From assembly GCA_964372855.1 (NCBI GenBank), contig CAYJRY010000001.1:18794-82793 (forward strand): a stretch of DNA of 64,000 nt. Direction: 5' to 3'. The notes under the pieces are model-generated. The model ran no database searches, was not told where the DNA came from, and saw only the letters and a program-made list of their open reading frames with translations. Position 1 is the stretch's first letter, and each line of letters starts with the position of its first letter. The position numbers and the translations under genes were made by a program. Positions 33,641-62,613 of the stretch are shown here, in pieces. This stretch comes from an uncultured Gammaproteobacteria bacterium. Its GTDB lineage: Bacteria; Patescibacteriota; Microgenomatia; Levybacterales; UBA12049.

Positions 33641-33665
33641 ATAAAAAATTCCCACATAATCGTAT

Positions 33666-40316: not shown

Positions 40317-41804
40317 CTATGGCTGAAGCTCAAACCACCATCGCGCATATTGGTCATACATGTTAGAAAAAGTAATAGGTTTCCATCCTGCCTTAAGTAT
40401 TGCAGACTCTGATGCGCTTGAAAAATCTACTATGCCAATATTGCTTAATATCGGATACTCACTTTTAAAATTAGTTTTTCTTGGTAATAAGCATTTTTCT
40501 CGCAATCCAATCTTCACACCCCTTTTATTATATTTATGTTTCGCTTCTAGGGCTAAAACAATAGAAAAAGCAGAGCCATTATAGAATGAATGATACTTTT
40601 TCGAACAAGTATATAGTAAGAAACTACTTTTTGGATATTTTTTTTCCAAATCATTTACTCCATTATATATCAACATACTAAATCCATCTTTTTTAAGCTC
40701 AGATGCTGTTCTGGGATATGAAAAAAAAATAATTAAAGGTATTAATATTAAACCAATATAAATTTTTCTATAGTTTAAATTAATAATTGCAAAAGTAGTA
40801 AAAATAAATACAAATGGCCGCAGAAAGTTAAGATATCCGAAAAATCTGGGTCCCCAATAATATCTAAGTAAAATAAAGTTAACTAAAAATGCAACAATAA
40901 GCAAAATTAAATTTATCGATAATTTCTTTTTATAAGCAAACCACAGAAAGAGGATAAAAAACAAGATCATTATTAAACTAGAAAACCAAGACGGAACTCC
41001 TAAGGCATCTGCCCAAAATGCAGGCCAAAAATCTCTCACATAGAATAACCATCTGTTGGGAACATATATAGCATTTTTTCCTTCAGTAATATAATAGAAA
41101 ATATTTCTAGTTGTAAACCAATGGTTATTCATTTCAAATATTAACATTGGGATAAAACTTATGACTACGCCTAAAGCGCTAAATACAAAATTTATGAATT
41201 TTCTTTTATATAAAAAAAGGACAAGCGGAAGGATTAATAATCCACCCATCTGAAAATGTAGATTCATCCCCACTCCTATAACAAAACCAAACAATAAGCT
41301 GAGCCACTGTGATTTCTCTTTAGATATGAGTATTAAAAAAAGCCAGATTGCCAAAGCGGCAAATAAGTTGGTATTATTATGACTAGTTAAATGTGTTGCT
41401 GATATTACTTGTGCAGGAGAAATGGCGGCTATAAAAGAGACGATTAAACCAAAGTTGTCTCCGCCTAAAATTTTACCGATTTTGAACATTACAAAAATGT
41501 ATATCACTGAAATAATACTTAAGTATATCCAAGGAGAATATACAGATGGAAAAATAAGATAAAATAAAATTAATTGATATGCGTACCATGGTCCAAATGT
41601 AAATGGACCAAGAGACGAAAAAGATCCTGTCAGAGGAAACTGTAATTGTCTTGCGCCTTCAATTCCTATTACAGCATCTCTAACTGTTTCCTCACCTAAA
41701 GAATATCTATAAGGGTAATTATAAAATCTTAAAAATGTGCCAAGAATCAATATTCCCAAAAAAATATAGAAATGCAATTTTTGCTTTCTAAGAAAAGTTA
41801 TCAT
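40317..41804 (-). CDS. GT-C-like polytopic membrane protein, member of the D-x-x-R-D first-loop family
   Basis: 495 aa. It has LGEETVRDAVIGIEGA...LTGSFSSLGPFTFGPWYAY, the same loop architecture as 44206, 45718, 47233, 52892 and 61051. Confidence 0.45.
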   Translation of the reverse strand: MITFLRKQKLHFYIFLGILILGTFLRFYNYPYRYSLGEETVRDAVIGIEGARQLQFPLTGSFSSLGPFTFGPWYAYQLILFYLIFPSVYSPWIYLSIISVIYIFVMFKIGKILGGDNFGLIVSFIAAISPAQVISATHLTSHNNTNLFAALAIWLFLILISKEKSQWLSLLFGFVIGVGMNLHFQMGGLLILPLVLFLYKRKFINFVFSALGVVISFIPMLIFEMNNHWFTTRNIFYYITEGKNAIYVPNRWLFYVRDFWPAFWADALGVPSWFSSLIMILFFILFLWFAYKKKLSINLILLIVAFLVNFILLRYYWGPRFFGYLNFLRPFVFIFTTFAIINLNYRKIYIGLILIPLIIFFSYPRTASELKKDGFSMLIYNGVNDLEKKYPKSSFLLYTCSKKYHSFYNGSAFSIVLALEAKHKYNKRGVKIGLREKCLLPRKTNFKSEYPILSNIGIVDFSSASESAILKAGWKPITFSNMYDQYARWWFELQP

Positions 41805-42568
41805 AAAATCCTAAGATACTTAAGGTAAGAAACCGGAAATCTTAATGCTGAAAAAAACGAAAAAACAAATCCAGGGAATACATCCATAAATCCCTTATGT
41901 CTAATATATGTAGTTAAAAACCAATGAACAGGCTTAATCAACAAATAAACTAATCCATAATAGAAAATGTAGATAATGTTTTTATTTTTTAATTTATTTT
42001 TAAGCTGCGAAGAAAGAAGATCGCAATACCTAGTCCATTTATGTATATAATCGCCAAATCCTTTGTAAGGATAGTGAAGGAGAGGGTGGATCAAATATCC
42101 TACTTTTCCATCTATTATTGCCTGTTCATGAACATCTCTTTGAGGTAAATATCCCTTTCCTTTACGATACAACCTTAGGGTATAATCTGGATATTGTCCT
42201 CCTTTAGTTAAAAATCTTCCCAAAAACCAATTTTTTCTTGGAATCCAATATCCGCTTACGCGGGAATTTCCAATTTTTTCTTTTATCTCTCTAGCAAGAT
42301 CTGATGTTACCCTTTCGTCTGCATCCAGCTGAAGAATCCAATCTTTTGTTGCCATATCTATTGCTATTTGCTTATTAATATGAAATATTGGTTTGTTGTT
42401 TGTAATTTTTACGCGAGCATTGAATTTTTTTGCAATTTCAACTGTATTATCGGTAGATAAACCATCTACAACAACAATTTCATCTGCTAAATCTTTTACT
42501 AATTCAAGACAATCTTCTATGTTTTTCTCCTCGTTATAGGTTGCCAAAACTATCGAAAGCGATGCCAT
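41801..42568 (-). CDS. GT2-family glycosyltransferase
   Basis: 255 aa. It has SIVLATYNEEKNIEDCLE...IVVVDGLSTDNTVEIAK and LDADER motifs. Confidence 0.6.
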   Translation of the reverse strand: MASLSIVLATYNEEKNIEDCLELVKDLADEIVVVDGLSTDNTVEIAKKFNARVKITNNKPIFHINKQIAIDMATKDWILQLDADERVTSDLAREIKEKIGNSRVSGYWIPRKNWFLGRFLTKGGQYPDYTLRLYRKGKGYLPQRDVHEQAIIDGKVGYLIHPLLHYPYKGFGDYIHKWTRYCDLLSSQLKNKLKNKNIIYIFYYGLVYLLIKPVHWFLTTYIRHKGFMDVFPGFVFSFFSALRFPVSYLKYLRIL

Positions 42569-44205: not shown

Positions 44206-45714
44206 TTATCTATTATCTATCCTTCTCTGAACTATTACTCCTCCCTTTACGATTTCTTCTTTTTCTACAATTCCATCACCTTCCCTATCTTTTAGCCAAT
44301 CCCTTAATCTAAACGGTAAATCATAATCAGGCTCAATTATTAAATAAAATAATCCTGTGTTTTGTCTTGAAGGTATATACCCATATTTTTTCTCTCCATA
44401 CCACGGAAACAAGTATCTATAGGTGTAATCGTGTACTGCTGGAGTATAAACAATATATTTAAAATCCTTCCCTTTTGCATCGTTATAAACGTAATCGATT
44501 ACAGCAAGCTGATTACGATATACTGCTGCGTTTCCTTCCCACAATGGCTTCCTAATATTTTCTAAAACCTGTATGGGATCAAGGTTGATCCAAAATAAAA
44601 CAAAAAGTATAAAGAAAATAAACCAAAATTTTTTTAAGGCAATTCTCACTATATTAATAGCTATACTTATAAAAAAAATGTACAAAATTGGAATACCAAC
44701 AAGATAATGAGACCAAACAGCCTGATTGAAAAAAGTTAGACCAATTAAAAAAACTCCAATTGATATCAAAATAATTTTTACAAATTGCTTACTTGGATTC
44801 TCCATTTTCTTATAAAAAAATATTATAGCCAAAGAGGCAAATGTAATTAAAAGAAAACCAACTATAATATTTTGTCCTGCCAATGTAGCATTCCATGTGT
44901 TAAATAATGAAATCATCCTGCTAATAAGTGCATCGAAAAGAGAAAATTGCTTAGCAGGCAAAAAACCATTACTTAATGCATTAATAAATGTCTTAGTCAT
45001 TAAAAAATCGTTTCTAATTTCAAAAATAATACGTGGCGAAAAAATCAGCAAAAATCCTAAGATAAAAAAGAATATTCCTTTTATTGCCAGTCTTTTTCTA
45101 AAAAGAATAATTAAAGAGAGACAAATGCTTAAAAAGAATAGCGTCCCAAATACTATTGCCAGATCTATTATGATTCCCAAAAATAAACCAAGTAAAAATA
45201 GCTCTTTTTCTTTAGGCGCTCTAGATTGATCTTCAAGGGAAAATTTTCTAAGTATCAAAAAAACAAGCAGTACAAAAAATGCTGCTAAATTTGGACTCCA
45301 TATTTGTAAGGAAAATGAAACCATTAAGGAAGAGAAACTAATAAAAGCTGCAACAAGTATTCCTAAAAAAACTCCTCCTATCTTCTCACCAATAACATAA
45401 CCTAATATAATAGTAGCAATTCCGATGAAACCCATAAAGAAAGTAATTCCTTGTGGGTTGCCGGAAAAGATAAAAAATGGAATGCTTAATATAAAATACC
45501 ACCATGGACCATAGAAAATGCCCTCTATTCCTGTTGTTGGGCCGATAAGAGTAATATTATTATTAATTACTATATCCTCAACAGCAATTAAATCTCTGCC
45601 CACATCATAGGTAAAAGCAAATGAATTAGTAAAAATTCCGCTTAATCTAAGCCATGACCCGATTGCTATAATTATCATTAGCAAACCTAAAATAACAATT
45701 TTTTTCTTATGCAT
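44206..45714 (-). CDS. GT-C-like polytopic membrane protein, D-x-x-R-D family with a C-terminal WYGEKKYGY domain
   Basis: 502 aa. The N-terminal loop is FTYDVGRDLIAVEDIV...TLIGP...GIFYGPWWYF. The C-terminus is YLFPWYGEKKYGYIPSRQNTGLFYLIIEPD. Confidence 0.45.
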   Translation of the reverse strand: MHKKKIVILGLLMIIIAIGSWLRLSGIFTNSFAFTYDVGRDLIAVEDIVINNNITLIGPTTGIEGIFYGPWWYFILSIPFFIFSGNPQGITFFMGFIGIATIILGYVIGEKIGGVFLGILVAAFISFSSLMVSFSLQIWSPNLAAFFVLLVFLILRKFSLEDQSRAPKEKELFLLGLFLGIIIDLAIVFGTLFFLSICLSLIILFRKRLAIKGIFFFILGFLLIFSPRIIFEIRNDFLMTKTFINALSNGFLPAKQFSLFDALISRMISLFNTWNATLAGQNIIVGFLLITFASLAIIFFYKKMENPSKQFVKIILISIGVFLIGLTFFNQAVWSHYLVGIPILYIFFISIAINIVRIALKKFWFIFFILFVLFWINLDPIQVLENIRKPLWEGNAAVYRNQLAVIDYVYNDAKGKDFKYIVYTPAVHDYTYRYLFPWYGEKKYGYIPSRQNTGLFYLIIEPDYDLPFRLRDWLKDREGDGIVEKEEIVKGGVIVQRRIDNR

Positions 45715-45717
45715 AAT

Positions 45718-47229
45718 TTACTTAAATAAACGTTTCTGGATAATTAACCCGCTGGCAAGTTCTTTTGTTGCTATAATTTCTCCCTCTTTTATTACTGTCT
45801 CAAGCCATCCCTTATAGCTCCAAGGTTTTGAGCTATCCTTTTCGATAAGAAGATATATAAGTCCTTTTTTTTCTCTATGTGGAACATATCCATACTTTTT
45901 CTTTCCATACCAAGAAATAAGATAATCATAAGGATATGTATATATAGGAGGACTAAATATCAGTATCCCAAATTGTTTTCTGTGAGCGTTTTTATAAATA
46001 TAGTCTATTGCATCCAGCTTTCCTTTAATTTTATGTGTACCGCCATAATCGCCAATATCATAATAAAATGTTTTAACGTTAGAAAAAATACCAGAGAGGA
46101 GCATTATTGCCAAATATCCTACAATAAAAGCTTTTACAATTCTATATTGTATTCTTAAGAAAGATATAATAACAAAAACAACTAAAAATATATAAGCCAG
46201 ATTAAGATGAATAAGATAGTAATTATAAACAAAATTTCTCAAAAATCCTAAGACAATAAACGTAACTGGTATAAGGATTAAAAGATATAGGATAAATTGT
46301 CTTCTTTCTCTATCGTATTCTCTAATGAGCAAATAAAAAATAGCGGGAATAATAATAAATATTGCCAAAGGAATAATTTCTTGTCGGGGGAATGTAGACA
46401 AAAAATTCTGAAAAAATACCAAAAGATGATCGCGTAAAAGGTATATCCAAAATGTTTGTGTTGTTGCTGTTTCTGGATGATCAAATAAGTAAGTTAACAA
46501 TCCCTTTGCTGCTTGGAACCCATGTCGGATTTCAAACAGAAACATAGGAAAGAAAGACGTGACAAACCCTAAAAACAAAACAATATATTCTTTAACTTCT
46601 TTACGCCTAAGTACTAATACACAGTACACGATAAGACTTATAGAGAGAGGAATAGCTATGGCCAATTGAAAATTATATACAAAACCCGAGAAAAAGGAAG
46701 CCCAAAAAAGATATTTTGTTTTATGTTTTTTTGTAAAAAGAAATACGAAATAATATGCCAATAAGATAAATACTGGCGAAGGATTAGAATTCCATACAAA
46801 TCTTGAGTAGGTAATAAAAGGCGGAGAAATAGCAATCAAGGCAGCAACTATTAGTCCAACTTTTGCTCCAAATAGCCTTCTTCCAATAGCATAACCAACA
46901 AGAATTGTTGCGATTCCCAATAAAAACATTAATATTATTCCCCCATAAGGATCTCCTTTAAAAAATATAAAAGGTGCTGCTAGTAGATAATAATAAAAAG
47001 GTCCATGGAAAATTCCGCGAAATCCAGCAACACCCGCGCCTATTTCAGATCCAATAAGAGTCAGCTTGTGATCAACGACAATATTTTTTACCGCAAGATA
47101 ATCTCTACCTTGATCAAATCCAAAAAGAAAGTTTCTATTTAAAACCTCTACAGATCTTAGAATTACTCCACTCAATATTGCTGAAAAAAGTATTATATAA
47201 ACAATAATCCTCAAAAATCTTTTGGCCAT
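45718..47229 (-). CDS. GT-C-like polytopic membrane protein, D-x-x-R-D family with a C-terminal WYGKKKYGY domain
   Basis: 503 aa. It has FGFDQGRDYLAVKNIVVDHKLTLIGS...GIFHGPFYYY and YLISWYGKKKYGYVPHREKKGLIYLLIEKD. Confidence 0.45.
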   Translation of the reverse strand: MAKRFLRIIVYIILFSAILSGVILRSVEVLNRNFLFGFDQGRDYLAVKNIVVDHKLTLIGSEIGAGVAGFRGIFHGPFYYYLLAAPFIFFKGDPYGGIILMFLLGIATILVGYAIGRRLFGAKVGLIVAALIAISPPFITYSRFVWNSNPSPVFILLAYYFVFLFTKKHKTKYLFWASFFSGFVYNFQLAIAIPLSISLIVYCVLVLRRKEVKEYIVLFLGFVTSFFPMFLFEIRHGFQAAKGLLTYLFDHPETATTQTFWIYLLRDHLLVFFQNFLSTFPRQEIIPLAIFIIIPAIFYLLIREYDRERRQFILYLLILIPVTFIVLGFLRNFVYNYYLIHLNLAYIFLVVFVIISFLRIQYRIVKAFIVGYLAIMLLSGIFSNVKTFYYDIGDYGGTHKIKGKLDAIDYIYKNAHRKQFGILIFSPPIYTYPYDYLISWYGKKKYGYVPHREKKGLIYLLIEKDSSKPWSYKGWLETVIKEGEIIATKELASGLIIQKRLFK

Positions 47230-47232
47230 ACC

Positions 47233-48510
47233 TCAATATACTTCTTTTCCTTTTTTCCTCATATAATAATAGTATAAATACGATTCTGGAACTCCTTCAT
47301 GAAACCCAATATCCCTCCCTTCCTCAATTGCTTTTAAGACTTTTTGGCTTCGCTCATGAATTCCCCCTTCTTTATAAGTAAAATATTTGCTTATATTAAA
47401 TATTGCATAGTATATTAAAAAACAAGATAAAATAAATTTAGGAATCCAATTTCTAAATAAAAATATTCTAGATAACAAATAGGAGATAATAATAAGTGCG
47501 ATAAATCTGTTTGTGGAAAAATAGTAGTCGCTTATTTCTCCGCTATAAGTTGAGAGCACAAACCAAGGAACCACAAACCAAAGAATTATAAGATAACACA
47601 GAACTATTTTTTCTTTTGAAACTGATTTAAAAAACAACAGAAACATAAATAAAGGAACAAGAACAAACTTTAAAGGTTTAAGAAAGGAAAAAGTAAAAAA
47701 CGGCTCAAATTGAATAAGGGCATCATTTGTCAACTGCAGAACTCGTCTTACATGAAACCCATGATAGTAGCTAGTACCGTATTGTAAAAGATTTGATGTA
47801 TGTTGTTGATTTTCTAGAGTAGCTATAATAGTGGGAATAAGCCAAACTGTAAATACCGGTAAAGCAAAAAACATATATTTAAGCGTCTCCTTAGTCTTTG
47901 GAAAAAAAATAACTGACAGAAAAATCATAAAAGGAAAATAAATAGAAGTAAAATGTATGTGAAAGGAAAAACCCAACGCGAGACCCAAAAGAAGCATGAA
48001 TTTTGGATTTCCTGTTATTATTTTGTAGATACTATAAAATATAATAAGTGAAATGGCAGGGATAAAATTTACCGGCCATTGTACTCGGTCAAAAATAATA
48101 CCATAATATGCAACAGTATTTATAAAAATAGCTATAAAAGCGGTTTCCACTGAAAAAATTTTTTTAGTTATGTAAAAAAGGGTCAAAAATGTAAAAATGC
48201 TTGTAACTCCTGCAAAAACTCCGGATGCTATTGGATCAAGATTAAAGATCCAGTAGAAAAAAGCTATCATATAGTAATATATAGGACCAATAAAAATACC
48301 GCTGTTCTGCTTAGCAACCATTCCAACGAGAGGTAATTCGTGATTAACTATTATATTTTTGGAAGCCCACGCATTATCGACTTGATCCCATCCGAATGGG
48401 CTTCTTGTATCAATTTCATAGAACCTCAAAAATATCAATAAAATAAATATGATCAAAAATAATACCAAAGCTTTACTACTCCAAAAGCGCAAAATAAATT
48501 CTTTTATCAT
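47233..48510 (-). CDS. GT-C-like polytopic membrane protein, divergent D-x-x-(R/D)-(D/N) family member
   Basis: The likely start is MIKEFILRFW (1 nt after the upstream stop). The ORF-track start at 48609 would overlap the upstream gene by 98 nt. The loop is FGWDQVDNAWASKNIIVNHELPLVG...GIFIGPIYYY. Confidence 0.4.
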   Translation of the reverse strand: MIKEFILRFWSSKALVLFLIIFILLIFLRFYEIDTRSPFGWDQVDNAWASKNIIVNHELPLVGMVAKQNSGIFIGPIYYYMIAFFYWIFNLDPIASGVFAGVTSIFTFLTLFYITKKIFSVETAFIAIFINTVAYYGIIFDRVQWPVNFIPAISLIIFYSIYKIITGNPKFMLLLGLALGFSFHIHFTSIYFPFMIFLSVIFFPKTKETLKYMFFALPVFTVWLIPTIIATLENQQHTSNLLQYGTSYYHGFHVRRVLQLTNDALIQFEPFFTFSFLKPLKFVLVPLFMFLLFFKSVSKEKIVLCYLIILWFVVPWFVLSTYSGEISDYYFSTNRFIALIIISYLLSRIFLFRNWIPKFILSCFLIYYAIFNISKYFTYKEGGIHERSQKVLKAIEEGRDIGFHEGVPESYLYYYYMRKKGKEVY

Positions 48511-48511
48511 A

Positions 48512-50164
48512 TCAATCTTTATGAATAACTCTAATTGCAACTTCTCCATCTGGATAATCGATTCTATGAATAGTTTTATATATTTCGCTAAACTCTGAAT
48601 TGCTTCCAACTAATAGAATATTGTTTTCCTTCTCTTCATAGTAATTAAACGGTCTAAATTCAAAATTTAAAAATTTATTTTGAGCATCCTGAACGCCCGA
48701 CCTAGTTCCTCCTTCTTGTAAATATTTTTCAGGATTATATTTTGAATAAAAAAGAAAAAATATATAGGACTGATCCATAGGCATCCTATTCGAAACAATT
48801 ATCTTATTGTAGTTTTCTCTGACAGACATAAGGTAACTAACTAAATCTCTATATCCATATTGCCAGTATTTTGCGTGAAAATAATTTTGCTGAACAAAAT
48901 ACTGATTGATATAATAAACAAAATTAAAAATGAAAAATGAAAAATATAATCCAAATATTAGATATTTAATCTGTATTTTTGATATTTTATTTTTGATATT
49001 TGATATTGCACTTACGGTTGTAATAATCCCAATTGCTATAAATACTTGAAAAGTGGGCAAAAAGTTTAATGTGCGTACCGCATGAGGAACATCGCTTGTC
49101 ACAGAAGCTGGAATAGGGGCTATTAAAAACCAGCTAAATATAAACGCTTTTGTCTTATTTGGGAAATTACCAAATAATAGCATATATATCCCAATCATCA
49201 AAAATGGTAGCTCCCAAATATATAAAAGTCCCATGTTTGGTGCATGATGACGTGCTATATCGCCTTTTACGAACAACCAATTTAGATCAAAATGGGAAAG
49301 ATAACCAGCAATAATGTTTTTAAAATATGTAAATCGTCTATTGTCTAAAATAAGACCAATATAATCATGATTTTCCCTATTTCGCATAAGTCTTTGTACA
49401 TTTTCCTCAAGAATTGGTGTTCTATTCGCAAGTATGCTTACATCTTGAGCTCTAGACAGTGCTTCTCTATTGGTAAACGTGTAATAAATTATCGGTAATG
49501 AAACAAAAAGACCCAGTATTCCAGCTATTATTATGTATTTTTTTGAAATTAAGAAAAGGTCTTTTCTAAATATAAGAATTAAAGCAGTAAAAAGTAAGGG
49601 GGTGAAAACTTTCTCGCTTTGATATGTATATAAATTTACGCCACCCGCTAATGCAGATAATACTAAAAACCATGGTCTTTTTAATCCCAACAGAAAAAAT
49701 AATGCCGCAAAAACATTGAAAGCAAGCCCAACATTTGATTCAAAAGCAATTCTAGAAAATTGTATATGCCAAGGAGAAACAGCTAAAATAAATGCTGAAA
49801 GTAAGGCAATATTTTTTCTCCCAAAAAGTGTTCTAACCAAAAAGAAAACACCCAAAATAGTAAGTACTCCAAATACAGCAGATGGAATTCTAACTGCAAA
49901 TTCATTTAAACCAAAGATGACTATTGATGGTGCTGATAAGTATACATATAAAGCGGGTTTGTAATCATCAAACGAACGTAAAATAATAGGTAAAAACTCT
50001 CCATATTCATCTCTTCCTGTTTTTAAAATAGAATATGCATTGTATCCAAGAGCAACTTCATCCCAATCAGGAGAAATTGGTACATTTCCTAGTTGCCAAA
50101 ATCGCAAAAAAGATCCTATAAGAATTATAAAGAATAAAATAAAAAACTGAATATGTTTCTTCAT
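48512..50164 (-). CDS. ArnT/GT83-family (PMT_2-type) undecaprenyl-phosphate-sugar dependent glycosyltransferase
   Basis: 550 aa. It has FLRFWQLGNVPISPDWDEVALGYNAYSI...YKPALYVYL...IFGLNEFAVRIPSAVFGVLTILGVFFLVR. This matches the ArnT pattern (WDEARYAEIA...KPPL.YWL...FGxNEFAARLPSAL). Confidence 0.6.
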   Translation of the reverse strand: MKKHIQFFILFFIILIGSFLRFWQLGNVPISPDWDEVALGYNAYSILKTGRDEYGEFLPIILRSFDDYKPALYVYLSAPSIVIFGLNEFAVRIPSAVFGVLTILGVFFLVRTLFGRKNIALLSAFILAVSPWHIQFSRIAFESNVGLAFNVFAALFFLLGLKRPWFLVLSALAGGVNLYTYQSEKVFTPLLFTALILIFRKDLFLISKKYIIIAGILGLFVSLPIIYYTFTNREALSRAQDVSILANRTPILEENVQRLMRNRENHDYIGLILDNRRFTYFKNIIAGYLSHFDLNWLFVKGDIARHHAPNMGLLYIWELPFLMIGIYMLLFGNFPNKTKAFIFSWFLIAPIPASVTSDVPHAVRTLNFLPTFQVFIAIGIITTVSAISNIKNKISKIQIKYLIFGLYFSFFIFNFVYYINQYFVQQNYFHAKYWQYGYRDLVSYLMSVRENYNKIIVSNRMPMDQSYIFFLFYSKYNPEKYLQEGGTRSGVQDAQNKFLNFEFRPFNYYEEKENNILLVGSNSEFSEIYKTIHRIDYPDGEVAIRVIHKD

Positions 50165-50181
50165 ATGAAGTTTAAACTTGT

Positions 50182-51768: not shown

Positions 51769-51829
51769 TCGAAAAAATGTAGCTAAAAAAACTATTACTG
51801 CTAAAATTAAAATAATATGTTTGTTAAGT

Positions 51830-52507
51830 TTAATATTTTTCTCCCTTTCTTTTTAATAGGAATGAAACAGCCATTGTAAAATTAAATATTTTCTTATGAA
51901 CTATAGAAAAACCGTTTGTACGAATTACTTTTTCTAGATTCTCAGTATTAAATGTATGGATATGAGAATCTCTCCATACTCCGTGTCTCATATTAGTCCA
52001 CCAATGCCAAATTGTCTTAAATAGAAAATTTCCACTATCCATTTCTACAACTGCTATACCATTTGGGTTAAGCACTCTTCCTATTTCTTGTAGAACTTTT
52101 TCTGGAAATTCAACATGTTCTAAAACCTCTGTACAAATAACTAAATCAAATGACTTATCAGCAAAAGGTAGGTTGTGGCCATCGGAATGGATCAATTTTA
52201 GAGATTTATAACGCTTCTTGCCATAATCTATAGCTTTTTTGTAAATATCAACACCTATACATTTAGATTTTGGGTATTGCAACTTAACTTTGGAAAGAAA
52301 CCAACCGCTCGCACATCCAACGTCAAGAATATTTTTAGGATAAATATGAGTTCCCTCGATAAGGCTTAAAACAGTTTTCAATTTTTTAGTGTGCCAAATT
52401 CTCTGAAGTAGATTCTTTGATATCCCGTTTTGATAGTAGTCGGGTGGCACTTGGTGCCAAATTTCCTCTAACTCTTTCTTTGAATTGGTTCCTAACTTAC
52501 TATTCAT
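51830..52507 (-). CDS. Class I SAM-dependent methyltransferase (paralog group A, third copy)
   Basis: 225 aa. It has [11 protein letters not shown] and [49 protein letters not shown]. Confidence 0.65.
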
Positions 52508-52565
52508 ATTTTATTTTCCAAATACCCTGTTGTAAAAATTACGCTACCTATCGAAAATGATTGGC

Positions 52566-52844
52566 TTATTCTACTCTGTCTTTTCTGCCAAACTTTTTGC
52601 ACATCAACGGAACAGATAAGTATATTGGCAAGGGTAGAAACGGCCATCCTTGCATATTCATCCAGGTAAGAAATGGAAATGACTCACTAAAAACATTTTT
52701 ACCAGTTTGAGAAATAGAATAGGCATTATAGATATATCCCATTTCATCATGAGTCACACCGTAAGGAACATCACCAAGCTGCCAAAAGCGGAGAACTATT
52801 GCTAAAAGAAGAATCAGAAAAAGCACTAAATGTCTTTTAAGCAT
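52566..52844 (-). pseudogene. N-terminal fragment of an ArnT/GT83-family glycosyltransferase (truncated after about 90 aa)
   Basis: MLKRHLVLFLILLLAIVLRFWQLGDVPYGVTHDEMGYIYNAYSISQTGKNVFSESFPFL aligns with the N-termini of 48512-50164 and 50182-51768, then stops. No continuation is present. Confidence 0.5.
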
Positions 52845-52891
52845 AAGCAGAAAAAAGCTTCTAATATAATATCATAAGTAACTACATGAGG

Positions 52892-54385
52892 CTACCGAAA
52901 GTGAATCCCTAACTCTATAGATTTTTCATGCTCTATGGCTTGTTCCGCATCAGTTAAAATAAATTTTTCTATTATAAATCCATTTGGGAATTTTTTAGTT
53001 TCACTAGGTTCTTTTAGAATCTTTACCTGAACTTTACGCCACCAGTCATGAGTCATATAAGGATCATCTGCTGGAGGAGGAGCTGCAATTATGTATGTAG
53101 TAGGTTTTTTTGAATATTCAAAAGCTTTTGCTTTTGCTTTATTAAAATTATAGATCATTGCGTATCTTGGTTGATAAGCCAGAGCATCAGGCGCAAAAAC
53201 AAAATAACCAAACTCTCCTCCTTTCTGCCAGTCTACAACAGTATTTGCTACCTCGCTAAGAGCAAGCCACGAATTATAATGTTTACCAATACTTCTTTCA
53301 TCATAATGCATAGTAGAAATAAAATCCGAATAAAAAATTAAAAAGATAAATGGAATAAATAAGAATCTATACTTACTTTTAAGAAATGAGGTAAGCCATA
53401 AGGCAGTTAACGGTATAATCAAATAGACATAATGAAATAGTAAAACTCCTTTGTTAAAAAAGCTAAGGCACATATATCCAAAATAATAGAAGGGGAATAA
53501 AAAATATAATTTTCTTTGCCTGATATTTTTCAATTGCAGGATAGTGGCTATAATAACCACCGCAAAAACAATATAAACAAATAAATCATTTACTTTGTTA
53601 TTAAAAAGCTGTAAAGAAACCGTATTATTAATTCTGTTCTCCACCCACGATCTTATCGTTATAAAAAAATGCAACGATTCTCCAGTTGAAAGTATTGCTT
53701 TTGACATTCTCAAATCATTGCGAAGATCAAAGATAATTAAATTCGAAAGAAACAGGGGAACTAAAATAAAAGCAATTAAATGTCTCCAAAGATTATTTCT
53801 ATAGATTATCCAGATAATTAATAAAGAGGAGAGTATTAAAAATTGAAGTCCTATGCCGATCTCCAGTTGAATAATTAATGCCAGAATTATCAAATGTAAA
53901 GTTAGATATAGCGCTTTTTTGTTTTCTACATATTTATATATAGTAAATAAGAAAACAGGGACAAAAAAGAAAGTTGCTTCCGAATGAAACACTCCGTTCA
54001 GATAGGGAACCATTTTTGTAGAAACGAATAATACATAAACAAATGCAGGGAACATTCTAAGCATTTTCCAAACCATCCAAAAACTACTAATTAAAAAAAC
54101 TGCCGCAAGCATAATCCAAAACCACGCAATTATTACCGGATCCCCATGCCCAATAAGATATGCCGGGTAATTCATATATGTCCAGAGAGGGCCGTGGAAA
54201 AGCCCATTGGTGCTGGATCTGGGGCCAATAAGGACTATCTTCTTTTCATCCAATTCCGAAAGCAAAAGAAAATCTCTAGCAACGTCATTAAAAAAATTTA
54301 CCTCACCATGACGGACGGGATAAGAAGACATATACAAATTAAACAACGTTAGAAGAAACAATGGTAGATAAAATAACTTCCCCAT
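52892..54385 (-). CDS. GT-C-like polytopic membrane protein, D-x-x-R-D family member
   Basis: 497 aa. It has FFNDVARDFLLLSELDEKKIVLIGPRSSTNGLFHGPLWTY and a C-terminal soluble domain with a degenerate Y..KAK...Y...YIIAAPP motif. Confidence 0.4.
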   Translation of the reverse strand: MGKLFYLPLFLLTLFNLYMSSYPVRHGEVNFFNDVARDFLLLSELDEKKIVLIGPRSSTNGLFHGPLWTYMNYPAYLIGHGDPVIIAWFWIMLAAVFLISSFWMVWKMLRMFPAFVYVLFVSTKMVPYLNGVFHSEATFFFVPVFLFTIYKYVENKKALYLTLHLIILALIIQLEIGIGLQFLILSSLLIIWIIYRNNLWRHLIAFILVPLFLSNLIIFDLRNDLRMSKAILSTGESLHFFITIRSWVENRINNTVSLQLFNNKVNDLFVYIVFAVVIIATILQLKNIRQRKLYFLFPFYYFGYMCLSFFNKGVLLFHYVYLIIPLTALWLTSFLKSKYRFLFIPFIFLIFYSDFISTMHYDERSIGKHYNSWLALSEVANTVVDWQKGGEFGYFVFAPDALAYQPRYAMIYNFNKAKAKAFEYSKKPTTYIIAAPPPADDPYMTHDWWRKVQVKILKEPSETKKFPNGFIIEKFILTDAEQAIEHEKSIELGIHFR

Positions 54386-54406
54386 TTTGCAAAGAGAATA
54401 TTTATC

Positions 54407-56923: not shown

Positions 56924-56937
56924 GGAGTTTGAGATAA

Positions 56938-59079
56938 TTAGTTACCATCGTATATAGTTATATCTTGACCATCTCTTTTGGATTTTTCAATTACAGTTCT
57001 TATTGTTCTTCCATTCTTGTCTTTAATTTTAATTATTCCCCCATCGTATGCTGATAATATTTTGTCGTATTGCTTTTCCTCCCCTTTAACGCCGTGATAA
57101 TTATAGCTACTGTAAATTCTAGTACAGCATTCTTCGTAGAATAGATTCTGAATGCCCAAAGGCTCGATAAGTGGTGAGTAATAAATCCTAGCTATATGAT
57201 GAATAATTTTTACACCTTTATATGAAAGTATTTTTTCTTTAAGATTATTTGTAAGATTTGTAAATAAGGTAAATAAAGGAGCATCGGAACCTGGAATCAT
57301 ATTTTCAAGGTATGCGTTTTGCAAATGAACATTTTTTACGTATCCTATTTTGCTTAGGAAATCTAGCATCTCATTCTCTTTTTTCAAATCAATTTCTTGA
57401 GGATTAACTGTTATCAAGTAGCCATTAATATCTTCTACTAAAACATTTCCCCCTGAGTCAAGAATTCTTCCTCTCTTTCCTTGAGATATAATAGTCTCCA
57501 CATTATGTTCGGGCAAAAATCCATTCAAAACCAAATCCCAATCCCAAATAATTTTCCATTGGCCGTCTTCTTTAATCAATTCGATACTTTTATTTTCAAA
57601 GAAAGCACCCAGACCTCTTGTTTTATATTTAACTAAAATTTCAACTAAACCTCTATTCGCAAATACTGAAATATCGCGCTTTAATTCTTTTATTTCAATC
57701 GCTGCTACTGTAGCTTTATCCAAAATTCCCTGCGTATGCAAACGAAATTCACCGCGGGACATTTTAGGAAAGGCTAATTTCGCAATATTTTCATGATATA
57801 TATCTTGGAAGTATTGATTAGATAGATTGTAATAAAAATTATTCAAAACCAACTCTGATTTGGGCTGTAGAAAAAACGTGGAATGAACAATACCATAGAA
57901 AATTATTACTACAAAAATCAAGATCTCTTTTCTATTATTAACATAATTAACAACTACCTTAACAAAAAGAAGATAAAGAAAAGGTAAAACAATCATTAAA
58001 TATCTGGGATATGCAGGAATAAAGGTATATACAATAAGAGTCAATAAAGTGAAAATAGAAATACCTTTCCAAAATAGATTAACTCCTTTCTTAAGAAGAA
58101 ATATTATAGAAGTAATTATTCCAATTATGCTAATTGTAGGCCATATAATCCACCATTCAGTAACAGAAGTAAGAGAACCGTCTGAAATATTGGGAAATTT
58201 TCCTAAGAATAATGTTTGCCAAATAGCTTCCTTATGAACAACAACTTGAGACCTTAGGTAAAAATCTACAATATATTTTTGCAAGCTTAAAAAATCTATC
58301 AAGGAATTACCATCAAAAAAGAATTTACCATACGGAATAAGTATTCCAATAAATATTCCGAAAGTAAAAATAATATATTCTTTAATCTTCTTTATATAAA
58401 TAAAAAATCCGCTCTCAAGAAAAAAAATTATAGGCAAAAGAATCGGTGGTTTAGTCTGTGTAAATAACCCTAATGACAAACCAATTAATAAAGAAAGGAT
58501 AAGCGTTTTATTGTTTTTTTTATTTACAAATATAATGAATAAAAATAAATTTACTAGAAGAAAAAACAATTGAGAGATGTCAACCCATGCTTTCCAAAAC
58601 TGATTTATGAAAAGAGGGTCAACAAAAAAAAGCGCTGTGGCAAATAAGGCAAATATACTGCTTCCTAGTAACTTCTTCGAAATAAGAAAAAAAAGAAATA
58701 GAGATCCTATTCCCAAAAAAAGGGCATAATAGGCGGGATTTCTAAAAATTAAAATTGATAAACCAATTAGATATTTTCCTACAGGAGGTGTTTCCGCATT
58801 GAATCCGTCAAGAGAAATTGTATTATTAATAAGACCATATCCAATATAGGAAAATAGCCCATCATCTCCTATAATTCGCTTCGACAAAGGAAGAACCCAT
58901 TGCGAATGCTCAAAACGATCTTTCCAGTAAGGAACATTATAGGCCTCTCTAAAGAAAGCCCTTTTAAAATAAATAATCTGAACAGTTTGTATTAAAATAA
59001 TAAGACAACAAAAAATAACAAGAAGGTACTTACTTCTAGACAATGTTTCAGTAATAAATTTATAAATTTTATTTTGCAT
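56938..59079 (-). CDS. PMT/GT39-like polytopic glycosyltransferase candidate, long form
   Basis: 713 aa. It has IIGDDGLFSYIGYGLINN...AETPPVGKYLIGLSILIF, homologous to 39147-40310 and PMT-like. It has a large C-terminal soluble domain. Confidence 0.5.
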   Translation of the reverse strand: MQNKIYKFITETLSRSKYLLVIFCCLIILIQTVQIIYFKRAFFREAYNVPYWKDRFEHSQWVLPLSKRIIGDDGLFSYIGYGLINNTISLDGFNAETPPVGKYLIGLSILIFRNPAYYALFLGIGSLFLFFLISKKLLGSSIFALFATALFFVDPLFINQFWKAWVDISQLFFLLVNLFLFIIFVNKKNNKTLILSLLIGLSLGLFTQTKPPILLPIIFFLESGFFIYIKKIKEYIIFTFGIFIGILIPYGKFFFDGNSLIDFLSLQKYIVDFYLRSQVVVHKEAIWQTLFLGKFPNISDGSLTSVTEWWIIWPTISIIGIITSIIFLLKKGVNLFWKGISIFTLLTLIVYTFIPAYPRYLMIVLPFLYLLFVKVVVNYVNNRKEILIFVVIIFYGIVHSTFFLQPKSELVLNNFYYNLSNQYFQDIYHENIAKLAFPKMSRGEFRLHTQGILDKATVAAIEIKELKRDISVFANRGLVEILVKYKTRGLGAFFENKSIELIKEDGQWKIIWDWDLVLNGFLPEHNVETIISQGKRGRILDSGGNVLVEDINGYLITVNPQEIDLKKENEMLDFLSKIGYVKNVHLQNAYLENMIPGSDAPLFTLFTNLTNNLKEKILSYKGVKIIHHIARIYYSPLIEPLGIQNLFYEECCTRIYSSYNYHGVKGEEKQYDKILSAYDGGIIKIKDKNGRTIRTVIEKSKRDGQDITIYDGN

Positions 59080-61054
59080 TAATCTTATAAATCACTGTAG
59101 ATTGGTCCTCGTATACCTTATGTATATAAGCTTTCTTTGCAACAAAAGCTAACGGGTAAGGACTATAAATATATGATATTTTATTTTTTTCAAATCCCTG
59201 CCTTACCTCTTCTTGGAGATGGGTATACTCGGAAGAATCGTTTGGAGGTATGTTATCTAAGAAAATCACTTTATGAATAAAGTCAATTCTAGGCCTAATA
59301 TCCACTCCAAAAAAATCAATATATTCGTTACTAAGATAACTTCTTTTGTTGCCAAAAGCAACAATTGCGGGTGAGGATGAACCATACCAATGCCCTACAT
59401 CTTTTAACGTTGGCTTAATATCTTTGGATGGAATTTCTATAACAGTATCTCTATATTTTCCCTGCGATTTCAAAAAATTCATTGCTTGAAAATAAGGTCC
59501 TGATAATGAAAAACTATTTGAATTCCTAGTGCCAAAGTAAACCTTATAGCTCTCATATGCAGATGGCAATGTTAGAACGACAATTACTGTAAATAGCAAA
59601 GTTTTTATCAGCCGACTTGAGATAAGATTCAAGAATGCAGAAACTCCAAATGCGGCAAATAAAGAAATAAAAAATAAAAAATACCATCCCATTTGTATTA
59701 TTTCAAATACTTTCCCTGACTGGATAAAAAATAAGGGAATCAAAATAGAAATTAGAGTTATTAGCAAAACTGTAAAAGCAAAAAATGAAGGTGGTTTGCG
59801 TTGTTTCAAAAAAATCACTGGCAAGAAAAATAATCCTATCAATCTTGTACCCAAATTTCCAAACAAAAATACGTACAGTGCGTATAATTCTGTCTCTACT
59901 ATTCCCTTTATCACAGTAAACTTTGTATAAGTATACATTTTCTCTGCGTATCCATACCAAGGCATATTATCTGTTAAAACGCTATGAGGTGCCCAAAGAG
60001 GCGCGAAAATAAGAATAGATGTTGGATCTCTAAAAATACCGTATGTAAAAATAAAAATTAATCCTGTAATAAATAAAGGAATAAGTATAAAATAGTTTTT
60101 TTTGCGAACTATCTCAATTAAACTAAATAAGATAAAACCTCCAATAAGAATAATTCCTGCATATACTTTGAACATGGTAGACATACCAACGAACAAAGCG
60201 GCAATAATTAGCCAATTATTTTTTCTCGATTCAAGATATTGATAGGTCGCAAAAAGTGTTGAAATTACAATAATGATTGAAATGGCAAAAGGAGGATTAA
60301 TTAATGATGTTGCTGGCTGCTGTATTCCAAAAGCGCTATCCAGACTTAAATTAGTATGACCTCTTAAATAAAGGATGAAAGCGAAACTGCCGCCAAACAT
60401 AGTTAAAAAAACAGCCCAGAGAGCAACTGATGTTTTTTTACTCCATGCAAAACTTAAACAATAAACTCCCAGTCCCCACAAAATAGCCATAAATAACGGA
60501 AAGAAATGGAAATGTAACGAAAGAGGAGAAATAAAAATAATGTTACTAAACATTGCTATTAAAAAATTATAAAAAAAATGATAGCCCTTTAAAGGCACTT
60601 GTGCAAATCCTGGATTATCAGGCGGAAAATTTTCTTTTAATTCATTTATCAAAGCCAAATGCCACAAATCATCTCTTCCATATCTAATGGTATCTCCATA
60701 AACGCCAGACATTAACATGCTAAGGCTAAAAATAAATGATAAAACAAATATAATAAAAAAAGGCTTTATATGGAATTTATCAAGATTACAAGGCAACCAT
60801 TTCTTGCTTTTAATGACAAGAAAGTCAAGTATTAGTAGTATTGGCAAAATTATTATCTCCAATTTCAACCAAGTAAATATATAAGAAATTAGTGTAAATA
60901 GCATTATTCCTAAAGCAAATGGGAAAAAAAGATCCTCTGGCGAATCAAGTGTAAGTTTCAGTCTTGCTAATAAAAATTTTCCAGGCAAATAAAAACAAAT
61001 AAAAATAGCAAAAAGAAAAAGCACAATTTCTAGGAAAGATTGTAGAATATTCAT
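59069..61054 (-). CDS. Large polytopic membrane protein, possibly a YfhO-like GT-C candidate
   Basis: 661 aa. It has GDTIRYGRDDLWHLALINEL...FPPDNPGFAQVPLKGYHFFY and a C-terminal soluble domain. Confidence 0.3.
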   Translation of the reverse strand: MNILQSFLEIVLFLFAIFICFYLPGKFLLARLKLTLDSPEDLFFPFALGIMLFTLISYIFTWLKLEIIILPILLILDFLVIKSKKWLPCNLDKFHIKPFFIIFVLSFIFSLSMLMSGVYGDTIRYGRDDLWHLALINELKENFPPDNPGFAQVPLKGYHFFYNFLIAMFSNIIFISPLSLHFHFFPLFMAILWGLGVYCLSFAWSKKTSVALWAVFLTMFGGSFAFILYLRGHTNLSLDSAFGIQQPATSLINPPFAISIIIVISTLFATYQYLESRKNNWLIIAALFVGMSTMFKVYAGIILIGGFILFSLIEIVRKKNYFILIPLFITGLIFIFTYGIFRDPTSILIFAPLWAPHSVLTDNMPWYGYAEKMYTYTKFTVIKGIVETELYALYVFLFGNLGTRLIGLFFLPVIFLKQRKPPSFFAFTVLLITLISILIPLFFIQSGKVFEIIQMGWYFLFFISLFAAFGVSAFLNLISSRLIKTLLFTVIVVLTLPSAYESYKVYFGTRNSNSFSLSGPYFQAMNFLKSQGKYRDTVIEIPSKDIKPTLKDVGHWYGSSSPAIVAFGNKRSYLSNEYIDFFGVDIRPRIDFIHKVIFLDNIPPNDSSEYTHLQEEVRQGFEKNKISYIYSPYPLAFVAKKAYIHKVYEDQSTVIYKINAK

Positions 61055-62613
61055 TCTAAATTATGTTTATTTTCTCTAAATATTCGCTTTTGCACTAAAA
61101 ATTGACCAAACTTTTTTTCTTCTAAAATATCTGATGTTTTATTTTCTTCAAATATAATTTGCTGTATAAAATAATCCGGGATTCCAGTTGTTGGCTCAAT
61201 AATAACGTACCTATATTTCGTGCCAAAGGGTTTATCTAAAAGATTTCCTAAGTAACCTACTTGACTTTTTCCGCCATGATAAGGAAGATACCCATATTTT
61301 TTTTCGCCATACAGTTCATAAAGATACGACCATAAAGTATTTATATGCAAAGGGTTGGTTATCGGTATTATTGTAAACTGCTTGCCTCTGGATTCTTTAT
61401 AGGTATAATTAACAATTTCTTTTTCAAGACTTAGACTTATACCATATTGTACTGACAATGGACTATATTCTGTTTTGAGCCATGAATACACAGTATAAAA
61501 TTGCCCCGAAAAAATACAGATCAAAATAAAAGCAAGAAGTTTAAAATTTTTGACTGTATTTATTAATAAATATGCCCCTATTGCTATAATAGGAATAATA
61601 AAAGGTCCAAACATAAATCCACTATGCAGTATTCCTGATTTAAATAGATAAAAAATAACAAGTACTCCTAACCATATAGACAAAAGTATCAACGCGTATA
61701 TATCTTGCTTTTTTTTATATCGCTTTAAATAAAATATAACTAAAAATATGAAGAAAACTAATGCCCAATAAAAGGGTATAAAAGTTATTGATAAAAGAAA
61801 ATTAAACTTTTCAATAATTAAAAAAATCGTTTCCGTAAAAGGCCTTGAGGAAGACAGACTAGAGTTTAGAAAATCTGCAATTGCCAAAATAGCTTTGCCT
61901 TTAAATCGAATTTCGGAAATTACATATGTACTTGTCCCCAACAAAAAACCTAGTCCCAAAAGTAAAAAGCTTTGAAGTGTAAGTTTTATTTTATAAATTA
62001 ACCAGTATATAGGTAATACAATCAAAAACAAACCAAATGCGAAATCTGCTTGTATCAGAAACCCAAAAAAAAGACCTGTCAATATTAAATCTTTTTTTTG
62101 CTGTTGTTTTATGAACCTCCATAAAAAAAACAATAAAAGAGGCGTTATGTAAAGTGCAATAAGAGGATTTGCTAGCCACCTAGTAAATGTTTGAAAGAGC
62201 GGAGACGATGCATATAAAACAGAGGCCAAAAGGGCTATATGAAAATTTCGGAAAAGTTTGTATATAAAATAAATGCATAGAGGTATTGTAAGTAATGAAA
62301 AAAGAAAGAAGAAAACAGCAACAAATTCAGGGTTTCCAGAACTTATTGCATAAGGTAATGAAAGCAAATAATACCACAAAACACCATGATGCACTCCTGG
62401 AAGATCTGAGGACGGGCCAAGTATCTTAAAATCTTGATTATGCCAAATCGCGTATGCTTCGTAGGCATCTCTTGCTTGATCAAATCCGAAAACAAGCTGT
62501 TTTGATAGCCCAAAAAACGCAAATATAATAGAGATAATGAACGTAAAGACATACAATAAAAGTAGATAAAGAGGAATTTCTTTGAAATACTTTATTAATC
62601 TATGAATCGACAT
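61051..62613 (-). CDS. GT-C-like polytopic membrane protein, D-x-x-R-D family with a C-terminal LYGEKKYGY domain
   Basis: 520 aa. It has FGFDQARDAYEAYAIWHNQDFKILGP...GVHHGVLWYY and LYGEKKYGYLPYHGGKSQVGYL...RYVIIEPTTG. Confidence 0.45.
   Translation of the reverse strand: MSIHRLIKYFKEIPLYLLLLYVFTFIISIIFAFFGLSKQLVFGFDQARDAYEAYAIWHNQDFKILGPSSDLPGVHHGVLWYYLLSLPYAISSGNPEFVAVFFFLFSLLTIPLCIYFIYKLFRNFHIALLASVLYASSPLFQTFTRWLANPLIALYITPLLLFFLWRFIKQQQKKDLILTGLFFGFLIQADFAFGLFLIVLPIYWLIYKIKLTLQSFLLLGLGFLLGTSTYVISEIRFKGKAILAIADFLNSSLSSSRPFTETIFLIIEKFNFLLSITFIPFYWALVFFIFLVIFYLKRYKKKQDIYALILLSIWLGVLVIFYLFKSGILHSGFMFGPFIIPIIAIGAYLLINTVKNFKLLAFILICIFSGQFYTVYSWLKTEYSPLSVQYGISLSLEKEIVNYTYKESRGKQFTIIPITNPLHINTLWSYLYELYGEKKYGYLPYHGGKSQVGYLGNLLDKPFGTKYRYVIIEPTTGIPDYFIQQIIFEENKTSDILEEKKFGQFLVQKRIFRENKHNLE

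Follow-up and report, generated by a model that had tools for sequence, protein, structure and literature searches.

The question raised by this locus is what kind of enzyme is represented by six multi-spanning membrane proteins that the databases label GT39, yet that fail the membership tests for both GT39 and GT83. All six ORFs (named here by their lower coordinate) lie on the minus strand of the window, that is, the whole 64-kb stretch of DNA that was analysed, exactly where the original prediction had placed them (Table 1). We consider it highly probable that they are old paralogous integral-membrane glycosyltransferases of the GT-C fold, which make up a branch of the ArnT/PMT_2 lineage restricted to CPR bacteria of the Microgenomates type. 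Their function is most likely that of polyprenyl-phosphate-sugar-dependent transferases building or decorating a surface glycan. The start of ORF 47233 is most likely the ATG at 48510, giving a protein of 425 aa, rather than the TTG at 48609 given in the ORF list.

Table 1. Positions of the six ORFs, their motifs and domains, and two GT2 genes beside them (numbering of the window)
Feature	Position (nt)	Strand	Remarks
ORF 45718	45718..47229	-	503 aa; family reference; 11 predicted TM helices and outer-face C-terminal domain; PMT_2 47 bits
ORF 44206	44206..45714	-	502 aa; C-domain present; no Pfam match; 30% identity to 45718, full length
ORF 61051	61051..62613	-	520 aa; C-domain with ~25-aa insertion; start overlaps end of GT2 62595-63311 by 19 nt
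ORF 52892	52892..54385	-	497 aa; C-domain present; WYGxKKYGY degenerate (YNFNKAKAKAF)
ORF 47233	47233..48510	-	425 aa, short type; TM core and ~45-aa tail; loop FGWDQVDN; C-domain undetectable
ORF 40317	40317..41804	-	495 aa; most divergent member; loop EETVRD, E replacing D; start overlaps GT2 41801-42568
FGFDQGRD motif, first outer loop of 45718 (F36-D43)	47101..47124	-	D39, presumed catalytic acid
Equivalent first-loop sites, other five members	45592-45615, 62467-62490, 48373-48396, 54272-54286, 41676-41690		
E233-I-R235-H236 (FEIRH) of 45718	46522..46533	-	Outer end of TM7; second conserved motif, [ED]-x-R-H
C-terminal alpha/beta domain of 45718 (aa 386-502)	45724..46074	-	WYGKKKYGY at nt 45886-45912
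C-terminal domain of 44206 (aa 386-501)	44212..44559	-	C-domain profile
C-terminal domain of 61051 (aa 378-513)	61075..61482	-	C-domain profile
C-terminal domain of 52892 (aa 357-478)	52952..53317	-	C-domain profile
GT2 gene, 238 aa	62595..63311	-	Resembles AglJ, PpgS, PgfS and ArnC (polyprenyl-phosphate-sugar synthases), all below curated cut-offs
GT2 gene, 255 aa	41801..42568	-	Directly upstream of 40317, overlapping; same order in second Levybacteria genome

Judged by their sequences, the six ORFs are true homologues, with similarities far above chance. BLASTP E values across the set ranged from 1e-68 to 1e-5 (44206 with 45718, 1.5e-68; with 61051, 9e-29; with 52892, 5e-12; 45718 with 47233, 8e-13, and with 40317, 6e-15), and a family HMM scored the six members at 70-774 bits, while the next ORFs of the window, the canonical PMT_2 genes, reached at most 32 bits. 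The shared N-terminal loop pattern that had been proposed for them holds in its essential part, as an acidic residue occupies the same first-loop position in all six, but the literal D-x-x-R-D is present in only four, 47233 having DQVDN and 40317 having ETVRD. A search of the 64 kb in all six frames found the stricter pattern F-x-[FYW]-D-[QV]-[GAV]-[RD]-[DN] just four times, always at the equivalent position in a family ORF; the deviating members are 52892 (FFNDVARD) and 40317 (LGEETVRD). Likewise, the full string G[IV][FH][HY]GP.[WY]Y[YF] was found in only two of the six, but its G-P core is conserved across the 138 family members aligned (G76 in 135, or 98%; P77 in 93%). In the same alignment position 39 is D in 127 members and E in 10, G60 is retained in 137, and position 233 is E or D in 119, followed by R235 in 94 and H236 in 100. 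The E233-I-R235-H236 motif, which the original prediction did not mention, is a candidate phosphate-binding site. Since 40317 has E in place of D39 and 47233 lacks the R-D, some copies could be inactive.

An AF2 model of the reference protein (pLDDT 88, pTM 0.88) has a GT-C fold, nearest to ArnT, ALG12 and PMT, all of which use polyprenyl-monophosphate-sugar donors. Foldseek ranked ArnT (5f15/5ezm) at the top (E 1e-6), followed by STT3, ALG12, PglB, AglB, ALG9, AftA and Pmt4. The predicted topology comprises 11 TM helices with the N-terminus inside and the C-terminus outside, and K/R are abundant in all the inferred cytoplasmic loops. By model and alignment, the helix of the first outer loop carries D39, which lines up with ArnT D55; the role of the first-loop Asp in GT-C enzymes has been described (PMC7801869). 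The loop had been said to resemble that of ArnT while being distinct from it, and this was borne out, as FDQGRD falls on ArnT PDEGRY in a profile alignment and on the WDE of the canonical PMT_2 neighbours in a MAFFT alignment. At the sequence level, a search of PDB sequences with the full-length family profile gave no match at E up to 1, and AglB (E 0.014) and ArnT (E 0.35) were matched by an N-terminal profile only.

Four of the six members end in the WYGxKKYGY domain, which lies on the outer face, is of the alpha/beta type and measures 115-140 aa. The motif is exact in 45718, 44206 and 61051, where the three signatures originally quoted occur letter for letter, and degenerate in 52892. Full-domain matches to a C-domain profile had E values of 8e-58 (45718), 5e-47 (44206), 4e-38 (52892) and 7e-33 (61051), which are partly circular because all four sequences sat in the seed of the profile; independent support was provided for 52892 by BLASTP over the full length, and by hhalign of the 44206-type against the 45718-type tails (probability 100%, E 2e-40). 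Two further members had been credited with degenerate versions of the domain. The tails of the 40317 and 47233 types, however, showed no profile-profile similarity to it (hhalign probability <1%), so that there is one degenerate version and not two; the soluble C-terminal part of 40317, about 125 aa, has no detectable relation to the WYG domain. An identity of the WYG domain with the C-terminal domains of the canonical PMT_2 neighbours was rejected in the same way (hhalign probability <1%). The view that the family carries its own periplasmic module is thus supported, since the domain matches no model in Pfam or NCBIfam, has no solved fold close to it and is unlike the C-terminal domains of the neighbours. 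As the host is an uncultured CPR bacterium of the Levybacteria, which we take to be monoderm, "extracytoplasmic" is preferable to "periplasmic".

Where the six proteins belong within the GT-C superfamily (Pfam clan CL0111), to which their polytopic GT-C fold and acidic first-loop residue assign them, is less simple. Four exceed the PMT_2 (PF13231) gathering threshold of 26.1 bits (45718, 47.2; 40317, 32.4; 61051, 32.1; 47233, 29.2), and 44206 and 52892 have no Pfam match of their own although they are full-length homologues of 45718. The automatic NCBI name agrees with the idea that the six act as true protein O-mannosyltransferases (CAZy GT39), which would take mannose from polyprenyl-P-mannose and attach it to secreted proteins at Ser/Thr. 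We regard this as improbable. The name stems from a generic PMT_2-based rule, and ArnT and ALG12 are at least as close in structure. PMT/POMT (GT39; Pmt1-Pmt2 6P2R, Pmt4 9E61) are, with ArnT, among the closest known systems, but none of the six matches PF02366 (PMT) even at E up to 1, whereas the neighbours 48512 and 50182 do; Pfam found neither the MIR beta-trefoil that PMTs carry between TM7 and TM8 nor PMT_4TMC in any of them. The loop between TM7 and TM8 is short, at about 50 aa with two amphipathic helices; DQ stands in place of the DE pair, and the C-terminus bears an alpha/beta domain instead. ArnT itself (lipid A 4-amino-4-deoxy-L-arabinose transferase, GT83; C. metallidurans 5EZM/5F15) is no better a label: none of the six matched the ArnT equivalog NF009784, NCBIfam gave no usable assignment, and the donor- and metal-binding pair E84/K85 of ArnT (EKPP) is absent, EKPP aligning with F-H-G-P. 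The column beneath K85 is non-basic and variable (H in 46, Q in 37, I in 22 and Y in 13 of 138). The family had been called undescribed; its members do fall inside PF13231 and are auto-labelled "glycosyltransferase family 39 protein" or "ArnT-like", but a search of the literature on GT-C, GT39 and GT83 in CPR or Microgenomates bacteria found no account of the family, experimental or otherwise.

Three other readings have to be weighed against that of active GT-C transferases. Some or all copies might be non-catalytic GT-C-fold scaffolds, partner subunits or flippase-associated proteins (cf. Agl23, PIG-U), with the short 47233 type paired with a paralogue bearing the C-domain, but this is improbable in view of the acidic position 39 retained in 137 of 138 members, both divergent types included, and of the best structural matches being active enzymes; the adjacency of the genes is explained equally well by an operon of sequential enzymes. 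Glycan polymerases or ligases of the Wzy, WaaL or SEDS kind, the alternative offered by the original prediction, would suit proteins with many TM helices, and the glycan island holds two Wzx-like flippases as well; no Wzy_C-type domain or fold was found in the six, and we rate this reading as very improbable. The weakest case is that the shared motifs arise just because membrane sequence is hydrophobic and of low complexity and the genome is AT-rich, an outcome named beforehand as fatal to the family. The GC content of the window is 28-35% and pairwise identities go down to 17-22%, but composition-corrected BLASTP gave E values as low as 1e-68 for alignments that span the full length with the soluble C-domain, and the motif positions are in register, with the same columns conserved in hundreds of homologues. 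Low complexity as the sole source of the similarity is ruled out by these results, and we attach a negligible probability to it.

The genomic context is consistent with the glycosyltransferase reading, as the entire window consists of sugar-nucleotide and glycan synthesis genes. A polyprenyl-phosphate-linked donor is suggested by context, as 61051 and 40317 each start with an overlap into an AglJ/PpgS/ArnC-like GT2 gene. From gene position and sequence likeness, GT2 62595 probably makes the lipid-linked donor for 61051. The pair is preserved in GCA_016182235.1 together with the order of the gene cluster, and the adjacency is not conserved among 61051-type homologues at a greater distance. In other Microgenomates genomes every paralogue type is matched by orthologues of its own, with conserved gene order, and the duplications are therefore old; the proposed expansion to six copies is not a recent one, but it fits an old functional diversification. 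The canonical PMT_2/PMT neighbours (48512-50164 and 50182-51768) are members of this superfamily as well and lie in one operon-like array with the six, and their KP(A/P)xY aligns with the family HGPxY, but they share only 13-22% identity with the family.

We propose that a cytoplasmic GT2 enzyme (62595 or 41801) puts a sugar on polyprenyl phosphate, that the lipid-linked sugar is then flipped outward, and that each paralogue would transfer it to a cell-surface glycan or glycoprotein produced by the 64-kb island. In such a scheme D39 would activate or hold the acceptor; by position and composition alone, R235/H236 may hold the donor phosphate and the aromatic-rich C-domain (YTYPYDYLxWWYGxxKYGY) may select or position the acceptor. 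The paralogues would diverge in sugar, linkage or acceptor. The non-basic residue at the K85 position and the Q where the DE pair has its second acid count against this scheme.

The same logic of a GT2 polyprenyl-P-sugar synthase beside a GT-C transferase is seen in GtrA/GtrB/GtrC, CsbB/YfhO and Streptococcus Pgf, and that of many GT-C paralogues acting in series on an extracytoplasmic glycan in the mycobacterial Emb/Aft/Mpt sets. YfhO, PTPS_related and MptA_B-like genes share clusters with the six-member family. In contrast to those systems, the window ORFs that were scanned included no flippase of the GtrA type, and the family is by sequence not YfhO, GtrC, Emb or Aft; PF09586 and PF10131 (YfhO and PTPS_related) match the neighbours 42550, 29285 and 54407 but none of the six. 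Between 29285 and 63862 the six paralogues are accompanied by at least nine further membrane proteins of GT-C-like kind. It is conceivable, though rather unlikely, that all these form an extracytoplasmic assembly line in which the WYG domain is an unclassified carbohydrate-binding module and the 47233 type forms a heteromer with a C-domain paralogue. If so, the product would be a complex wall-associated heteropolysaccharide or a heavily glycosylated surface layer specific to Microgenomates, its synthesis likened in logic to that of mycobacterial arabinogalactan/LAM.

CPR bacteria have tiny genomes, and yet at least 64 kb and about 15 GT-C-type enzymes are given over to glycans here, so surface glycans are probably central to how this bacterium lives and attaches. 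The family is a real yet fairly ordinary branch of a well-known superfamily; it overturns nothing and extends that superfamily into a poorly known lineage. With the family defined, annotators have grounds to replace the misleading "GT39" label, and experimentalists have concrete, testable targets in D39, [ED]233-x-R-H and the WYG domain.

Stand-alone copies of the WYG domain, for which the original prediction suggested a search, were rejected on 1021 representative matches. Five of the ten short matches that were read retain part of the last TM helix. The one "M-started" protein of 126 aa whose context was examined, P0162, lies downstream of an in-frame stop codon within a gene of full length, and the partial match L071 belongs to a gene that in full encodes 520 aa. 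Throughout the 1021 matches the domain stood at the C-terminal end, the full-length proteins being of about 485-530 aa.

Six ORFs, named here by their lower coordinates (see table), lie exactly where the original prediction had placed them, in a window of 28-35% GC. All-against-all BLASTP of the 21 membrane proteins of the window linked all six (44206 with 45718 at 1.5e-68 over the full length, with 61051 at 9e-29 and with 52892 at 5e-12; 45718 with 47233 at 8e-13 and with 40317 at 6e-15), and an HMM seeded with 45718-type homologues and three paralogues gave them 774, 516, 417, 413, 95 and 70 bits, separating them from the next window ORFs (32 and 27 bits). The six belong to one family, as had been proposed. 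They form a genuine and coherent GT-C subfamily that is restricted in lineage and has a variant active-site loop. For 47233, the listed TTG start (48609) produces a 98-nt overlap with the preceding gene; the ATG at 48510 (MIKEF...) gives 425 aa, which matches the orthologue lengths of 418-441 aa.

Features of the glycan-biosynthesis island and its six-member family
Feature	Coordinates	Strand	Remarks
Glycan-biosynthesis island	1-64000		entire window
Sugar-nucleotide genes	~180-27000
Epimerase	32642-33715
GT-C-like genes	29285 onward		~15, multi-TM; include PTPS_related x2, YfhO, PMT_2 x2 and DUF2079
GT-C-like genes without family assignment	30994, 34114, 35513, 36764, 39147, 59069
Six-member family (40317, 44206, 45718, 47233, 52892, 61051)	40317-62613	-	425/458-520 aa
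Canonical PMT_2 gene 50182	50182-51829	-	TTG start truncates TM1
Fusion protein	56938-59079	-	713 aa
DUF5667-like proteins, small	38610-39125, 32127-32687, 8052-8651	-	only 8052 exceeds the Pfam cut-off

The family sits within Pfam PMT_2 and the GT-C clan. Four of the six proteins exceed the gathering score of PMT_2 (PF13231), none matches the Pfam models PF02366 (PMT), YfhO or PTPS_related, and nothing in NCBIfam exceeds its cut-off among them. Structure prediction bore out the proposed relationship to GT-C transferases: the AlphaFold2 model of 45718 (503 aa; 31-sequence alignment) was confident (pLDDT 88, pTM 0.88), and Foldseek placed ArnT first in the PDB (5F15/5EZM, E 1e-6), followed by STT3, ALG12, PglB, AglB, ALG9, AftA and Pmt4. 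The alternative that these proteins are glycan polymerases or ligases found no support, no Wzy-type Pfam model matching any of the six. The helices of the model, taken with hydropathy and the positive-inside rule, predict a protein that crosses the membrane 11 times from a cytoplasmic N-terminus; all loops inferred to be cytoplasmic are rich in K/R, and the model has two amphipathic helices in the TM7-TM8 loop. Sites predicted by this topology to face outward include D39 (45718 numbering), which belongs to a helix of the first outer loop (residues 38-51), as well as W146, N186 and the motif E233-R235-H236. The C-terminal domain is predicted to be outside too. The family is predicted to work like ArnT and PMT, although it belongs to the enzyme family of neither. 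The GT39 tests were negative: the family lacks PF02366, MIR and PMT_4TMC and has DQ where GT39 has DE, so that the label 'glycosyltransferase family 39 protein' given by databases is a loose name produced by a rule. For GT83/ArnT two tests were negative, the family giving no equivalog match and not retaining E84/K85.

The first-loop motif held in part. Across all six reading frames of the 64 kb the strict pattern has four occurrences, every one of them in a family ORF and at the corresponding position. The members that depart from it are 52892 (FFNDVARD) and 40317 (LGEETVRD), and 47233 reads DQVDN, so that the literal D-x-x-R-D is present in four of the six. Across 138 family members from 70-odd genomes, the truly conserved feature of the loop is an acid at position 39 (D in 127, E in 10), with R42 kept in 96 and D43 in 86; G60 (137), G76 (135) and P77 (129) are also kept. 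A second motif that had escaped the original prediction, F-[ED]-x-R-H (E233/R235/H236), is well kept too (acid in 119, R in 94, H in 100). When the six were aligned by MAFFT with 48512 and 50182, the two canonical PMT_2/PMT neighbours in the same array, F-D-Q-G-R-D fell on the neighbours' W-D-E-V-A-x, with W-D-Q-V-D-N of 47233 intermediate, and G-I-F-H-G-P-x-Y-Y fell on D-Y-K-P-A-x-Y. YKPALY of 48512 in turn aligned with EKPPFH of ArnT. A profile built from the first 140 residues placed 'sfgfDqvrdayaa...gifhGPlyyY' on 'LVGPDEGRYAEIS...YFEKPPFHMW' of ArnT (E 0.35), an alignment that is weak yet consistent with the fold match. D55/E56 of ArnT and D77/E78 of Pmt1 form the first-loop active-site pair, of which at least the first Asp is kept in every GT-C enzyme, and K85 of ArnT contacts the phosphate of the lipid carrier (PMC7801869). 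Judged from these alignments, the family appears to retain the presumed catalytic Asp, together with an Arg three residues later that ArnT has too, but it has Gln in place of the second acid and no conserved basic residue at the position under K85 (H 46, Q 37, I 22, Y 13 among the 138). The description of the loop as resembling that of ArnT but distinct from it was accordingly accurate.

All three C-terminal strings that had been quoted stand letter for letter in the sequence, but only one of the two supposed degenerate versions is genuine. A profile made from the last 118 residues, the domain carrying WYGxKKYGY, matched over its whole length 45718 (8e-58), 44206 (5e-47), 52892 (4e-38) and 61051 (7e-33), all four of which belonged to its seed. 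The 44206-type and 45718-type tails align by hhalign with 100% probability (E 2e-40), whereas the 40317-type and short 47233-type tails show no profile-profile similarity to the domain (probability <1%). Four members therefore have the domain, in canonical form in three and in degenerate form in one (52892), and 40317 and 47233 do not. Modelled alone (pLDDT 84), it forms a small alpha/beta unit in the order helix, strand, long aromatic-rich helix with WYGxKKYGY, strand, helix and beta-hairpin. It is covered by no Pfam or NCBIfam model, and comparing its profile with the C-domains of the canonical neighbours revealed no similarity. An exhaustive HMM search of 1.84 billion representative proteins gave 1021 matches (E <=1e-3). 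In all of the 150 matches listed the domain stands at the very C-terminal end; the full-length proteins among them cluster at 485-530 aa, the shorter ones also end in the domain, and five of ten short matches whose sequence was read retain part of the last TM helix. The context was examined for one apparent stand-alone protein, P0162 (126 aa), which sits behind a single in-frame stop that breaks an otherwise full-length family gene on a JGI metagenome contig (L075, 1-960), and the stop could reflect a pseudogene, a sequencing error or recoding. A partial tblastn match (L071) proved to be a complete 520-aa gene. From these matches there is no evidence of a free-standing domain, which the original prediction had raised, or of another fusion architecture.

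45718 is 100% identical to a database protein encoded on an 85.6-kb NCBI contig, and its closest named relatives are from Candidatus Levybacteria and 'Patescibacteria group'; the window accordingly belongs to a CPR bacterium of Microgenomates type. A scan at one genome per species gave 72 family loci, and the informatively named records among them are Levy-, Gottesman-, Roizman- and Shapirobacteria or bear a generic Patescibacteria name, apart from one labelled Parcubacteria and one labelled Saccharimonadales; the 61051 type reaches Woesebacteria and Blackburnbacteria. Dozens of contigs with Microgenomates-type genes (L004, L010, L012, L016 and others) are titled 'uncultured Gammaproteobacteria bacterium' (TPA_asm binchicken), which appears to be a placeholder or wrong taxonomy. 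A second Levybacteria genome, GCA_016182235.1, has the gene order of the window (PMT, PMT, short type of 428 aa, members of 523 and 499 aa, PTPS_related, GT2, 501 aa), with one extra 499-aa copy. Best-hit mapping gave each window paralogue its own orthologues, by large margins over the second-best paralogue (47233 type at 25 loci, 40317 at 19, 44206 at 13, 52892 at five), so that the duplications are old and the copies have been retained. This fits differing specificities, as had been suggested for the six copies, rather than a burst of recent date. In 20 of the 25 loci that have the short type (L002-L073), its immediate neighbour is a domain-bearing paralogue (gap <=60 nt, same strand), upstream in some and downstream in others, which hints at a functional pair.

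The island also encodes an N-formyltransferase, a split transketolase, a DegT aminotransferase, a heptose-nucleotide-like route (SIS, GHMP kinase and nucleotidyltransferase/HAD), at least five epimerase/dehydratases, C-, O- and TylF methyltransferases, GT1/GT2/GT4 enzymes and two Wzx-like proteins. The 238-aa GT2 at 62595 is similar to synthases of polyprenyl-phosphate sugars (AglJ 118 bits, PpgS 73, PgfS 67, ArnC 59, all under the curated cut-offs), and 19 nt of its gene are shared with the start of 61051; the GT2 at 41801 likewise overlaps 40317. GCA_016182235.1 preserves the pairing of 62595 with 61051, together with DUF2079 upstream; homologues at 41-46% identity do not retain it. From the modelled fold, predicted topology, conserved outer-face residues and this gene context, we infer that a GT2 would make a polyprenyl-phosphate monosaccharide on the inner face, to be flipped outward; a family member may then hold the lipid-linked sugar in a TM groove, with R235/H236 near the phosphate and D39 acting on or holding the acceptor hydroxyl, and pass the sugar to a surface glycan or glycoprotein, acceptor recognition perhaps being aided by the aromatic-rich C-domain. 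It is probable that the six are active, or mostly active, polyprenyl-phosphate-sugar-dependent GT-C transferases; we hold any particular acceptor with much less confidence. The subfamily is useful to annotation and CPR envelope biology, and will not surprise a specialist.

Several neighbouring genes deserve mention. The helix absent from 50182 (KHIILILAVIVFLATFF) can be read in the same frame immediately upstream, where it is preceded by none of the codons ATG, GTG and TTG; this suggests either an unconventional start at ATT/ATA or an error in the sequence. The protein at 56938 joins a GT-C-like membrane domain to a PBP pedestal, an unusual combination: its N-terminal multi-TM domain is paralogous to the 39147-40310 protein (BLASTP 5e-15), and its C-terminal part is MecA_N/PBP-dimerisation-like (PF03717, 2e-13; PBP2a N-terminal part, aa 386-709), without a transpeptidase domain. 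At least the 38610 member of the DUF5667-like proteins has a signal-peptide-like N-terminus, and two of the three lie immediately downstream of ~380-aa multi-TM genes (39147 and 30994), suggesting a repeated two-gene module.
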